Source: a virus
DNA: 64,000 nt
Virus record (IMG/VR): IMGVR_UViG_3300037851_000222
Location: 30,994-94,993 of that record
Reading direction: 5' to 3' (one strand)
Shown here in pieces: positions 39,876 through 51,227 of the stretch. Both the position numbers and the translations under genes were made by a program. The notes under the pieces are model-generated. The model saw only the letters and a list, made by a program, of their open reading frames with translations. It did no database searches and was not told the origin of the DNA. How positions within the stretch are numbered: position 1 is the stretch's first letter; each line of letters begins with the position of its first letter.

Positions 39876-40428
39876 CCCCAACCGGACTTACGCCGCCGTC
39901 GCGCAGACGGTCATGTCGCTTTCACCTGAGCAGCGGCAGCGATTCCTGGCGGAAGCGCAGCGAAAGTATCAGGCACTGCCGGCTCGGTATCGCCGCATGG
40001 CCGATCAATACATCGCTCGCTTCGCGGAGCACGATGTCCGCGCCGCCCCCGGGCTGGGCAGCGCGGGAGCCGTCGCCACGGCAGCCAACACGGCAAGTTG
40101 GGTGAACAGCCTGGCCACCATCCTGCAATCCGTCACTGCCGTTGCCGGGGTCGCCATGGCCTACAAAGGCATGCAGGACGACAAGCAGGCCAAGCGCGAC
40201 CAAGCCGAGAACGAGCGTCAACTGATCGAAGCGCAGAAGCGGTCGATCGACGCCCAGACCGCCGCCGTGCAGGCGCAGGCCGAGGCAACAAGTCGGTCCA
40301 TCACGCCGAGTGCGCCCGGTGCGGCGGCCGGCGGGGGCATCAGCCAGACGACTTGGTTGCTGATCGGCGGCGGCGCCCTGGCGGCTGTCGGTGCCATCGT
40401 GCTGCTGGCGAAGAAGGGGTCCAAGTGA
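39865..40428 (+). CDS. Tail-anchored membrane protein (PGLG)
   Basis: Coiled coil; LLIGGGALAAVGAIVLLAKK. Confidence 0.7.
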   Translation: MQADPNRTYAAVAQTVMSLSPEQRQRFLAEAQRKYQALPARYRRMADQYIARFAEHDVRAAPGLGSAGAVATAANTASWVNSLATILQSVTAVAGVAMAYKGMQDDKQAKRDQAENERQLIEAQKRSIDAQTAAVQAQAEATSRSITPSAPGAAAGGGISQTTWLLIGGGALAAVGAIVLLAKKGSK

Positions 40429-40985
40429 GCTACCCCCAGCCCTACAACATCCGCACCGCATCGAACGAGGTCCGCGACCGCTGGTGGCTGGACGCCGGTG
40501 CCGACGCCGGCCGCTCGCTGACGCGGACGCAGTTGATCGGGCTGCACTACTGGAACGATGGCAACTCCGAGGGCTGGGAGGACGCCACCACCGCTGAACT
40601 GCGTGAGGCGTGGGTGGAACTCCTGCGGGGCGAGGGGTACCTGACCAACCCCCGGCGCAACCCCTACGCCAACGAGCATGCTGCCCGTCTGCACGACCCA
40701 CGCTACTTCCACACCTTCCGCCGGAAGAACGTCAAGAACGGCACCGTTGGCCTGATCCTAGGCAAGCCCTGGGGTCAGCGGACCATGGTGCTGCAATCGG
40801 TGCGCTTCCGCGCCGCCGCGTTCACCCCGGCCCAAGCACGAGCCTGGTTGACGAAACACAAGCTGAAGGCCGTGCTGGAGCCGGCGACCACCCGTGATAG
40901 GGCCTCGCTGTTCCGCGCCGAAGTGGCGCGGGCCAGGCGCACGGCTCGCAAGACCACCAAGCGCCGCGCCCGGCGCCGCGCCTGA
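40425..40985 (+). CDS. Basic NP-motif protein with PYANEHAARL module
   Basis: GTG start; LTNPRRNP boundary; Arg-rich tail. Confidence 0.65.
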   Translation: MSYPQPYNIRTASNEVRDRWWLDAGADAGRSLTRTQLIGLHYWNDGNSEGWEDATTAELREAWVELLRGEGYLTNPRRNPYANEHAARLHDPRYFHTFRRKNVKNGTVGLILGKPWGQRTMVLQSVRFRAAAFTPAQARAWLTKHKLKAVLEPATTRDRASLFRAEVARARRTARKTTKRRARRRA

Positions 40986-40996
40986 AGGATCACCCC

Positions 40997-41257
40997 ATGG
41001 CCAACCTCGGCTCGTTCCTGAACCAGTCCTACCTCGCCGCTGACAACCCCAACGAGGTCACGGCGGCTGACGCCGGGATCGCGCCGGTGGTGCCGGCCGT
41101 GACCCCCGATGAGGCGGCCCAAGCTGCCGCGACGACCGAGGCGGCCCAGGTCGCATGGCTCGATCAGGAACTGATCAAGGGCGTCCAGAACAAGTATCTC
41201 GCCATTGGTGCTGGCCTGCTGGTCGGTATCCTGCTGCTGAAGCGGAAGAAGGGCTAA
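40997..41257 (+). CDS. Small tail-anchored membrane protein
   Basis: MANLGSFLNQSYL; TM followed by KRKKG. Confidence 0.65.
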   Translation: MANLGSFLNQSYLAADNPNEVTAADAGIAPVVPAVTPDEAAQAAATTEAAQVAWLDQELIKGVQNKYLAIGAGLLVGILLLKRKKG

Positions 41258-41259
41258 CC

Positions 41260-41559
41260 ATGGCATTCCTCGGCCTGCTGCCGGACCAGGGAACGGTCAA
41301 GCTGAACCTCGATCCGAAGGACGTGGAGCGCGAGGCCATTGGCCGGTCGCTCTCGCTCTTCGGCGGCACGATCAGCCTGATCGGCGCGGCGCTGATCTTC
41401 AGCGTCAACCCGGCGGCCAAGAAGGACGTGGCGGGAGTGGTCCCGCTGTTCAACAAGAACAAGACCCTGGCGATCATCGGCGCCGGTCTGGGCATCGCCG
41501 CCCTGGCCTACATCGGCATCGCCAAGAAGATGAACCAACGCTACACCAAAGGAGGGTGA
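41260..41559 (+). CDS. Two-TM membrane protein
   Basis: Start MAFLGLL. Confidence 0.6.
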   Translation: MAFLGLLPDQGTVKLNLDPKDVEREAIGRSLSLFGGTISLIGAALIFSVNPAAKKDVAGVVPLFNKNKTLAIIGAGLGIAALAYIGIAKKMNQRYTKGG

Positions 41560-41560
41560 C

Positions 41561-49608: not shown

Positions 49609-49675
49609 GTCGGGCAGTTGTGGGGCGAGGTTTGCAAACAAAAGGGATGGCATTTTCCCTGACAACTGAAGGCGG

Positions 49676-49751
49676 ACTGTTCATCGACCGGGTTGCCTGC
49701 GGCGCCCGGTCGCACTGTTCATCGCCTGGATTGCCTAGCGGCATCCAGGCG
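49676..49751 (+). repeat. Tandem pair of covarying hairpin repeats
   Basis: ACTGTTCAT-CGACCGGG/CCCGGTCG and ACTGTTCAT-CGCCTGGA/TCCAGGCG with conserved TTGCCT(A)GCGGC loop region. Confidence 0.85.
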
Positions 49752-49757
49752 GCTCTC

Positions 49758-49801
49758 GTATAAACAAACCCCTTGCACCCTCATTGACCTCCGTTTATAC
49801 T
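49758..49801 (+). promoter_or_regulatory. Capsid-operon promoter with two GTWTAWAC boxes
   Basis: GTATAAAC (49758-49765), 7 bp, TTGCAC, 17 bp, TATACT; second box GTTTATAC at 49793-49800. Confidence 0.8.
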
Positions 49802-49886
49802 AGCGTTCGGCATGCAGCGGTTTCCGGGTTGTCACCCGCGTTCCGCCGGCAGCGTACTACCCCCGGTTGGAACCCATGAGGTATCC

Positions 49887-51227
49887 ATGCCGCTGATCAC
49901 CCTGTCCAACCCCTTGGGCCTGGACCTCGCGGTGCTGGGGAATCCTGGTCGTCGTCAAGTCAAGCGCACCAAGAGCCGCCGGAGCGTACGCATTCGTCGC
50001 TGGGTGATGAACCCTGCGACCCTGCGTAAGCTCGCCGGCTCGCGCAAGACCCGCGATGCCTCCTTCCGGCTCGGCCTCGGCGGCTACCCCGCCGACACGT
50101 TCGACCCGGACGCCCTGGAAGGCGCCCCTGTGCGCCGCCGGAAGGCGAAGAAGGCCCGCAAGATGAAGACCAAGACCACCCGCAGCAACCGCAAGTCCAG
50201 CCGCAAGGCGAAGGGCAAACAAACCCGCAAGAGCCGCAAGGCTCGCAGGAGCAAGACCATGGCCGTCAAGACCCGCAAGGCTCGCAAGAGCCGCAAGAGC
50301 CGTGCCCGCAAGGTGCGCGTCGTCCGCGTCCGCCGCACCCGTCGCGCCAGCCGCGCCCGCAAGATGGCGGCCCGGCGCTGGGTCGGCCGCACCTGGCACA
50401 TCAAGACCAAGAGCGGCAAGCGTCGCTCCATCCGCATCGTCCGTGCTCGCGCCCGCAAGGTCGCCGGCAAGAAGCGCGGCTACGCCAAGCGGTGGACCAA
50501 GTCCGGCCGCAAGGGCACCGTGGGTCTCCGCGCCCGCGTGTGGTCGCGGAAGCGCGGCTCGCGCCGCGTCTACTTCACCAACCCCGGCGGCATCGCTGGC
50601 ATGGTGAAGGGCTACGTCGGCGGCCTGACCTCGGCCCCCGGCACCACGTTCCGCGCCCTCAAGGGCAAGGGCATGGTCAAGTCGGCCGCCGTCATCGGTG
50701 GCGGCACCCTGGCGACCTTCGTCCTCGGTGGCGTGGCCACCCGCCAGATCAGCCCGCTCCTGGCCAAGATCCCCGGCGTCAGCGCCCTGCTGGCCTCGGA
50801 CATCGGCAAGCGCGTCGTCTCCGGCCTGATGCCCTACACCCTGGGCTTCATCGCCGCGCGCTTCATCAAGAACCCCATGGCCAAGTCGGCTCTCCTGACC
50901 GGCGGCGCCATGGCCTCGATTGTCAGCGTCCTGGCCCCCAAGGCCCTGGACACCGTGATCGACCGCGTCGGCCTGCGCCGCTTCATCCCGGCCCTGGGCA
51001 GCTACGAGGCCCTGGCTGGCTACTTCGGTGACGCGACCATGCTCGCCGGCTACGTCAACGCCCCCAGCTACCAGGGCGTCGCCGGCTACGTCAACGCCCC
51101 CAGCTACGCTGGCACCGGCGAGGACATGCTGGCCGGGTACGTCGACGCCCCCGCCTACCAAGGCACCCAGGGCATCGGCGCCTACCTCGACCAGAACTAC
51201 CTGGAGAAGTCCTACCTGGATGTCTGA
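49887..51227 (+). CDS. Protamine-like, membrane-associated core/scaffold protein
   Basis: NP motifs, long K/R-rich tract, hydrophobic helices, C-terminal AGYVxAPxY repeats; directly upstream of the capsid candidate. Confidence 0.7.
   Translation: MPLITLSNPLGLDLAVLGNPGRRQVKRTKSRRSVRIRRWVMNPATLRKLAGSRKTRDASFRLGLGGYPADTFDPDALEGAPVRRRKAKKARKMKTKTTRSNRKSSRKAKGKQTRKSRKARRSKTMAVKTRKARKSRKSRARKVRVVRVRRTRRASRARKMAARRWVGRTWHIKTKSGKRRSIRIVRARARKVAGKKRGYAKRWTKSGRKGTVGLRARVWSRKRGSRRVYFTNPGGIAGMVKGYVGGLTSAPGTTFRALKGKGMVKSAAVIGGGTLATFVLGGVATRQISPLLAKIPGVSALLASDIGKRVVSGLMPYTLGFIAARFIKNPMAKSALLTGGAMASIVSVLAPKALDTVIDRVGLRRFIPALGSYEALAGYFGDATMLAGYVNAPSYQGVAGYVNAPSYAGTGEDMLAGYVDAPAYQGTQGIGAYLDQNYLEKSYLDV

Follow-up and report, generated by a model that had tools for sequence, protein, structure and literature searches.

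Asn-Pro punctuates arginine- and lysine-rich linkers between exchangeable protein modules in a metagenomic virus and its relatives

The dipeptide Asn-Pro (NP) recurs in a run of basic proteins encoded at 40425-51227 of a stretch of IMG/VR virus record IMGVR_UViG_3300037851_000222, which raises the question of what it does in proteins where Pfam and PHROG searches, with every region protein and with single inter-NP segments, gave almost no matches. The stretch, hereafter the window, is the last 64 kb (64,000 nucleotides, positions 30,994 to 94,993) of this 94,993-bp record and has a GC content of ~63%. Genes were called from the frame signal of GC at third codon positions (GC3) with manual curation of the starts in the region, giving 113 proteins with 28,302 amino acids (aa); the 15 plus-strand proteins of 40425-51227 form the region set and the other 98 the remainder. 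The analysis indicates that Asn-Pro is over-represented because it punctuates Arg/Lys-rich linkers joining small exchangeable modules, in this virus as well as in its relatives. This is seen in the enrichment of the dipeptide, its frame and lineage specificity, its conservation, its polybasic bracketing, and the gain, loss, fission and fusion of modules at NP.

Within the region set, NP occurs 27 times where 6.2 occurrences are expected from the composition of each protein (z 8.3), and none of 3000 composition-preserving shuffles reached 27. The original prediction, made from the sequence alone, had proposed that NP marks the boundaries of swappable domains in these proteins, and the enrichment that such a role would entail is indeed present. 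The other 98 proteins hold 91 against 56.8 expected (z 4.5), and NP ranks first of the 400 dipeptides by over-representation in region and remainder alike; 23% of Asn residues in the region are followed by Pro, compared to 10% elsewhere. Basic context further distinguishes the region: [STKR]NP is found 15 times (1.6 expected), and NP with at least two Lys or Arg among the preceding four residues 8 times (0.8 expected), as opposed to 3 times elsewhere (2.9 expected). Neither SP (8 observed, 9.4 expected), TP (12 and 11.6) and DP (10 and 7.1) nor KP and RP are enriched in the region; as SP, TP and DP lack enrichment, the signal is specific to Asn, and a generic effect of a helix N-cap followed by Pro was rejected on the same ground.

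The sequence AAYCCN is found 27 times in the coding frame of the region, 5 times in each of the other two sense frames and 1-2 times in each antisense frame. Synonymous variation among the NP codons had been put forward as a sign of protein-level constraint, an argument that is weaker than claimed because the codon pair AACCCC alone encodes NP at 19 of 27 sites, where codon usage predicts ~44%; the frame specificity, and the conservation of NP in relatives with other codons, support such constraint better. Frameshifting or slippage at AACCCC was rejected, with no supporting pattern and several codon pairs encoding NP. Skipping of the 2A type at NPGP is specific to eukaryotic ribosomes and was rejected as no NPGP motif is present, and sortase or lipobox signals were rejected for want of a consistent consensus.

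Composition bias, wrong-frame open reading frames in GC-rich DNA, or paralogous duplication might also be held responsible; high GC does yield long spurious reading frames, and one duplicated C-terminal module adds ~3 NPs. The duplication between the 41561 and 42271 proteins (named, as are those below, by the first coordinate of the gene) is limited to the C-terminal ~38 residues, so that paralogy accounts for little of the NP. In the control phage Xp12, which is unrelated and has 68% GC and annotated coding sequences, NP occurs 22 times against 24.7 expected (ratio 0.89, rank 270 of 400), and relatives of the present virus at 50-52% GC share the trait; a GC artefact was rejected on both counts. 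With within-protein shuffles that never match the observed counts, a GC3 frame signal that backs the genes, and modules that are conserved at the protein level between lineages, some of them folding confidently, the artefactual explanation is effectively refuted.

The NP-bearing proteins of the window in question are:
40425..40985, plus strand: accessory basic protein, 186 aa; NP-RR-NP codons at 40647-40652 and 40659-40664
41561..42268, plus strand: accessory basic protein, 235 aa, 21% Lys plus Arg; four NPs at 41843, 41984, 42194 and 42203
42271..43197, plus strand: accessory modular basic protein, 308 aa; four NPs at 42613, 42670, 42949 and 43132
45516..46124, plus strand: core tail-anchored protein with an NP-F that is invariant in the family alignment; codons 45654-45659
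46993..47220, plus strand: small accessory protein, M-R-R-NP-R from a GTG at 46993; start uncertain, alternative ATG at 47017
48130..49608, plus strand: accessory protein, 492 aa; five NPs at 48364, 48541, 49015, 49282 and 49339
49887..51227, plus strand: conserved core protein; five NP codons at 49908, 49941, 50010, 50580 and 50871
16176..16901, minus strand: ParB-like protein starting M-T-NP-R; ParB-like match at residues 75-128, followed further downstream by a second NP (residue 168)
16898..18061, minus strand: ART-PolyVal protein; VIT-NP (residue 197) closes the ART domain, and an unrelated extension comes after it
18463..19212, minus strand: second ART protein, a paralog; its homology to the one at 16898-18061 stops at VIT-NP (residue 173)

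The motifs on which the original prediction was built are all present: LTNPRRNP in 40425, four NPs each in 41561 and 42271, five each in 48130 and 49887, MTNP and KNNP in 16176, VITNP in both ART paralogs and, provided that the GTG start is used, MRRNP in 46993. In the 40425 protein, NP-RR-NP directly precedes a conserved Y-x-x-EHAARL...FRRKNVKNGT domain; two metagenomic homologs, with 79% and 51% identity, both retain the second NP, which stands at the start of the conserved C-terminal domain, and the first is part of a 4-residue insertion, one homolog carrying its own RSNPKKRRNP insert at another position. The C-terminal helix module of the 41561 protein, NPPMSxAEAxAxxRxLxRHGY, starts at NP. 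The 42271 protein has one module at residues 1-80, another at 179-221 and, as the third, the C-terminal helix module; all four of its NPs occur in a K/R-[STK]-NP context. The mobile C-terminal domain of the 48130 protein spans residues 395-485, with NP385 10 residues upstream and NP404 inside. In the 49887 protein, an N-terminal MPxxL[ST]-NP-GLxLAxLG-NP is followed by a hypervariable protamine-like Lys/Arg segment, R-R-x-NP, a membrane domain and GYV[ND]AP[SA]YQG repeats. Linker forms in the window are degenerate, comprising NP-RR-NP, NP-K-NP, K/R-x-[STK]-NP and, in the 49887 protein, NP-(21 basic-rich residues)-NP.

Several further observations concern these proteins. The C-terminus of the 49887 protein (51043-51165) has three GYV[ND]AP[SA]YQG repeats that are kept in all orthologs, and a similar repeat is found in a 115-aa protein ending at genome coordinate 25065 on the minus strand. 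The ParB-like 16176-16901 protein has no Pfam match, so that its NPs are at most candidates for a boundary role. A module resembling RMF (ribosome modulation factor) had been suggested, a label for which searches gave no support: the segments of the 42271 and 48130 proteins have no Pfam RMF match, no PDB sequence match and no significant similarity to the 35116 protein. The latter (35116-35673) has a sub-threshold Pfam RMF match in its C-terminal residues 140-178 (E 4e-4), with an NP inside the match.

Relatives of the virus were retrieved through two core genes:
43486..45504, plus strand: transglutaminase-like core protein without NP; Pfam Transglut_core, Cys-His-Asp triad, C-terminal transmembrane helix
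51422..51973, plus strand: candidate major capsid protein of ~190 aa, with a predicted jelly-roll fold, serving as family anchor

Profile searches with 51422 and with the transglutaminase-like domain yielded 10, 7 and 15 related loci; IMG/VR searches for related loci with the single 43486 or 48130 proteins gave no matches, nor did a module-A profile against metagenomes. Synteny identifies 43486, 45516, 46644, 47207, 49887 and 51422 as conserved core genes. The genes 40425, 41561, 42271, 43214, 46993, 47706 and 48130 have no orthologs in any retrieved locus, which makes most of the window's NP-rich proteins products of lineage-specific accessory genes; in most lineages, NP-rich accessory genes lie directly upstream of the transglutaminase-like gene. 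Residues C103, H135 and D157 of the transglutaminase-like protein are invariant across the family alignment. Its ortholog is 1100-1380 aa long in loci L005 and L009, and in L021 its C-terminus bears acidic DANG-NP repeats.

When eight IMG/VR loci are pooled, NP is again the top dipeptide, with 197 occurrences against 79.7 expected (z 13); in further metagenomic lineages the ratio is 2.3-4.3, some of these at 50-52% GC, and it falls to ~1.1-1.3 in the most distant relatives. Core proteins retain individual sites over long distances: NP8, NP19 and NP232 of the 49887 family are invariant in 8 orthologs at ~35-40% identity, flanking a protamine-like segment that varies from ~15 to ~200 aa, and the R-R-x-NP directly precedes the conserved membrane domain. 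The basic proteins that relatives encode directly upstream of the transglutaminase-like gene display the fullest form of the pattern, in which a short hydrophobic leader is followed by NP-(R/K)n-NP, a module, NP-(R/K)n-NP, a further module and so on to a final NP-(R/K)n. Defining a bracket as NP-segment-NP with a segment of up to 25 aa, at least 40% Lys/Arg and no acidic residue, relatives have 29 brackets against 0.15 expected and the window 3 against 0.06. Nine proteins end in NP-polybasic tails, and inter-NP segments fall into two classes, one below 20 aa with 40-62% Lys/Arg and one of at least 40 aa with ordinary globular composition. Of five IMG/VR lineages, four carry this NP-polyarginine (NP-polyR) cassette; the closest, L013, lacks it. 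Profile searches of the Pfam/PHROG type with the NP-rich proteins of relatives matched GP88 only. The leader itself is near-identical among accessory genes of relatives (L021:1270-4621, L014:8028-9974, L015:10-4569), with ~16 hydrophobic residues and a conserved Cys, for example MIIPVLAGLGALA(G)CMS; it directly precedes the first NP-polyR-NP and is lipobox-like in some copies only.

The claim that NP marks the boundaries of swappable modules is largely supported by comparisons between proteins. Homology between the two ART paralogs (16898 and 18463) stops exactly at VITNP. Residues 1-80 and 179-221 of the 42271 protein are found as stand-alone proteins (P0011-P0014), in line with the expectation that such modules have separate homologs, and the C-terminal helix module of the window recurs, NP-bracketed, in L018, L019 and L021. 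The ARISYNGRIW-type domain that is C-terminal in the 48130 protein sits N-terminally, centrally or C-terminally in otherwise unrelated proteins; in relatives, the same modules appear in varied order and position and also as stand-alone genes that retain the polyR-NP leader. Loci L009 and L012 differ by the indel of one 56-residue module with both breakpoints at NP, and their DNA identity climbs to ~99% directly after NP. In a test of 133 homology blocks from 27 proteins, in which an end within 8 residues of NP or a terminus was counted, 83 block ends were at NP or a terminus compared to 33.6 expected (sd 4.8), and none of 2000 permutations reached 83. An AlphaFold2 (AF2) model of a 397-aa relative has confident modules at 141-199 and 214-305, exactly between NP sites, and none of the nine NPs inside a confident module; the NP-RRGRKTCR-NP linker is of low confidence, and polyR runs are modeled as helices bounded by NP.

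Selection might instead act mainly on the DNA, the linker-coding sequence serving as the substrate for cassette exchange and NP being incidental. A single gene contains a 54-nucleotide (nt) linker-coding direct repeat with 96% identity, the L009/L012 breakpoint falls at NP, AACCCC is preferred as described, and an exact repeat precedes two accessory genes of the window:
47692..47710, plus strand: 19-nt junction repeat, copy 1, preceding accessory gene 47706
48116..48134, plus strand: 19-nt junction repeat, copy 2, preceding accessory gene 48130

The junction repeat, CTGAAAGGCACACCATGCC, comprises a stop codon, AAAGG resembling a ribosome-binding site, and ATG; it has two exact copies where none is expected, each directly before a lineage-specific accessory gene, and looks like a cassette junction. 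A DNA-level origin of the NP signal is nevertheless highly improbable. NP is kept despite differing codons and flanks, with AACCCG, AACCCT, AATCCC and AATCCG all occurring at linker NPs; AAYCCN enrichment is confined to the coding frame; the NPs of core proteins are invariant at 35-40% identity; and no long linker repeats were found in the window.

The explanation that we favor, at a probability of roughly one half, is that the polybasic run tethers modules to nucleic acid or to an anionic membrane face, that NP insulates the folds on either side, and that repeats in the linker DNA favor in-frame recombination. NP would then be the punctuation of a lineage-specific inter-module linker or tag, its full form being NP-(R/K)n-NP or a terminal NP-(R/K)n, and the linkers would join small, independently folding modules of very basic accessory proteins encoded in an operon of capsid and membrane-protein genes. 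Binding of the polybasic spacer to packaged nucleic acid, or else to the anionic face of the membrane, may tether each module to the virion core. In established helix-capping statistics, Asn prefers the N-cap and C', and Pro prefers N1 and the place directly past the C-cap; Asn-Pro could thus act as a helix stop and helix start signal, and a combined terminator and initiator would account for the enrichment of Asn and not of Ser, Thr or Asp. Insulated in this manner from the charged spacer, modules might be added, lost or moved without misfolding, with near-identical linker-coding repeats as putative sites of in-frame recombination. What we infer in this scheme is that the proteins bind nucleic acid or membrane, that they are present in virions and that NP caps helices.

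A number of observations weigh against this explanation and against a strict boundary role. Homology-block starts lie at NP in 48 of 133 cases compared to 41.3 expected, which is not significant, and 42 of the 133 blocks contain an internal NP. Some NPs lie inside domains: NPD is conserved within the ARISYNGRIW-type domain of the 48130 protein and NP329 lies within the membrane domain of the 49887 protein. The AF2 model was a single-sequence prediction with a mean pLDDT (predicted local distance difference test) of 57, and, of its four modules, two lack a confident fold. Accessory proteins of the window show weak linker forms only and do not have the N-terminal hydrophobic leader of their relatives. 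A pure insulator role does not obviously account for the strictly conserved double NP in the first 19 residues of the 49887 family.

The same conserved sites could be read as points of cleavage. NP by itself, or together with the neighboring polybasic stretch, would then be where multi-module precursors are proteolytically matured, their modules being freed inside the virion or once delivery has taken place. Cutting might be done by a viral enzyme, for which the transglutaminase-like core protein is one candidate, or happen by autocleavage through attack of the Asn side chain. Asn-Pro autoproteolysis is known from the periplasmic domain of RsgI and from reovirus mu1/aquareovirus VP5 (Asn42-Pro43), where a folded scaffold activates the Asn side chain (PMC10328401). 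The likeness is in conserved Asn-Pro at functional boundaries, virus structural proteins among them; here NP is invariant in the 49887, 45516 and 40425 families. In the 49887 core protein, the hypervariable basic segment has invariant NPs on either side; an enzyme of papain fold whose triad is invariant is a conserved neighbor, and stand-alone and fused forms of one module coexist. The NPTH of FlhB/YscU is a further precedent for Asn-Pro autocleavage, and the NP-bracketed basic segment of 49887 resembles adenovirus core-protein precursors. Known autocleavage needs a folded scaffold, whereas most NPs here adjoin low-complexity polybasic stretches that are of low confidence in the one AF2 model. 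Little would be gained by cutting at NPs that stand on both sides of a linker, 2-7 residues from N-termini or before short C-terminal tails; no P4-P4' consensus extends beyond basic residues, Pfam scans found no dedicated maturation protease, and for the transglutaminase-like protein, an enzymatic role at the cell wall or in entry is equally conceivable. Cleavage is on balance an unlikely role for NP. A bolder and quite unlikely variant has NP-(R/K)n-NP as a plug-and-play cargo tag, in which the polybasic part would load a module onto genome or membrane and Asn-Pro would then be cut autocatalytically or by the transglutaminase-like enzyme; by this account large bacterial viruses that are tailless and contain a membrane, a group hitherto unrecognized, would free modules either within the virion or upon infection of a new cell.

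The original prediction had likened NP to the capsid targeting sequence (CTS) of T4, which amounts to a specific virion-targeting signal read by an assembly component, such that any appended domain is packaged and delivered. In T4, a tailed phage with an HK97-type fold, the CTS forms one N-terminal peptide, ~10 residues long, which the prohead protease cuts off at an L/I-x-E site. Both involve a short peptide proposed to permit the packaging of unrelated proteins, and it is in keeping with targeting that stand-alone modules keep the polyR-NP leader, that accessory gene families of relatives share one leader consisting of a hydrophobic helix and then NP-polyR-NP, and that the genes are located in the capsid and membrane-protein operon. 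The analogy did not hold for the CTS features that could be checked: the NP motif is repeated, internal as well as at both termini, with many copies per protein and at both linker ends unlike a single terminal targeting peptide, and its consensus comprises basic preferences only. Pfam and PHROGs gave no prohead protease in the proteins scanned, and no recognizable receptor or scaffold was found. Core membrane proteins and even the capsid protein family contain NP as well, and in L013, the closest relative, the anchor gene is not preceded by NP-rich accessory genes. As non-specific polybasic tethering accounts for the same facts more simply, a dedicated targeting signal is very unlikely.

Polyvalent proteins, as described by Iyer et al. 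2017 (PMC5512222), are multi-domain proteins of phages and conjugative elements that are predicted to travel with the DNA. The ART-PolyVal and ParB-like proteins, types for which packaging is predicted in that paper, also bear NPs in the present window, at the domain boundary in the ART proteins and at a tentative one in the ParB-like protein, a point in favor of targeting. The likeness extends to rapidly shuffled modules near virion genes, to several unrelated domains per polypeptide that vary between relatives, and to the presence of ART-PolyVal and ParB-like (PHROG) proteins in the genome. In contrast to polyvalent proteins, those described here have 75-560 aa, are extremely basic and consist mostly of modules without a known family; the region proteins lack the hallmark domains (ART-PolyVal, DdrB-like ParB, MuF, MPTase and others) by Pfam and PHROG, ART-PolyVal being confined in this genome to the two left-block proteins. 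A jelly-roll capsid-like protein is present here, whereas the phage-encoded cases in PMC5512222 are mostly from phages that package by portal and terminase. The word 'linker' is absent from that source, and the passages searched contain no NP-type motif. As a general notion, packaged multi-domain cargo has been published in the form of polyvalent proteins; for the NP-bracketed polybasic linker, no description was found in the literature searched.

Other basic proteins and peptides invite comparison. Adenovirus combines the basic core proteins pVII and pX with the protease adenain, and arginine-rich motifs, SPKK and AT-hooks are basic nucleic-acid-binding peptides, in which context Asx or Ser/Thr followed by Pro forms a turn or N-cap. 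We know of no NP-bracketed form of such a motif. The S/T-P-K/R-K/R or R-G-R-P cores of SPKK and AT-hooks differ from the present motif: SP and TP are not enriched here, and NP flanks the basic run on both sides. Resemblance to an adenovirus-type or SPV1-type core lies in very basic proteins encoded with capsid genes, in the 49887 protamine-like segment bracketed by conserved sites, and in the 51422 fold, which best matches SPV1, a virus with a nucleoprotein core (PMC8459092). These systems differ in that there is no sequence similarity, the genome is of a bacterial type with high GC and ~95 kb, no adenain-like protease was found, and modules are appended.

The remaining gene content gives some context for the virus. 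Replication and recombination genes of the window include a family-A DNA polymerase, SNF2 and UvrD helicases, a D5-type primase-helicase, a PD-(D/E)XK nuclease and a serine recombinase; N6/N4 and C5 DNA methylases, a PAPS-reductase-like protein and a DHH phosphoesterase represent DNA modification and nucleotide metabolism, and two ART-PolyVal proteins and one ParB-like protein (PHROG) were also recognized. The cluster at 25633-33217 is of a DNA-modification type, with the DHH phosphoesterase, the PAPS-reductase-like protein, a DUF1599 'nucleotide modification associated' domain and the C5 cytosine methylase, which suggests possible DNA hypermodification. No terminase, portal, HK97-type capsid protein or protease was recognized by Pfam and PHROGs among the proteins scanned, although absence from profile searches is not proof, and Pfam recognized no FtsK/HerA-type packaging ATPase in the subset of reading frames scanned. 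A blastn search against a phage collection gave no close relative, the sole match being a low-complexity stretch. A hydrophobic helix followed by a Lys/Arg tail forms the C-terminus of many proteins encoded at 35.7-47 kb; at 39865-46988 there is a run of paralogous coiled-coil proteins ending in a transmembrane helix and Lys/Arg tail (36681, 39865, 45516, 46129 and others), whose mutual similarity is weak in an all-versus-all comparison.

The candidate capsid protein places the virus in a wider family. More than 130 metagenomic homologs of 51422 with 50-77% identity lie on 70-115-kb contigs. The model made with 30 of these homologs is a jelly-roll (pLDDT 75.5, predicted template modeling score 0.70) that VIA-align matches to the SPV1 capsid protein (Z 9.0, 144 aa, 3.4 A), HHIV-2 (7.1), HCIV-1 (6.8) and P23-77 VP17 (6.3). 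Foldseek returned the same kind of match, but weakly (best E 2e-3), and support for a capsid-like fold similar to capsid proteins of internal-membrane viruses is for this reason moderate. A paralog of 51422 with 30% identity is encoded within the window at 34038-34532. From this one modeled fold plus its context, the group is probably tailless and membrane-containing, and the 51422 family points to a large, apparently undescribed virus group, for which a literature search found no description.

If the favored explanation holds, the lineage would have a grammar for modular virion-associated proteins (hydrophobic leader, NP-polyR-NP, module, NP-polyR-NP, module) by which hundreds of unannotatable reading frames could be parsed objectively into modules. 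It would provide a testable mechanism for attaching accessory domains to a viral core, and the linker could serve as a portable linker or tag for protein engineering. It would also spotlight widespread and essentially uncharacterized viruses of 70-115 kb, whose capsid-like protein, as modeled, appears closest to those of archaeal internal-membrane viruses.

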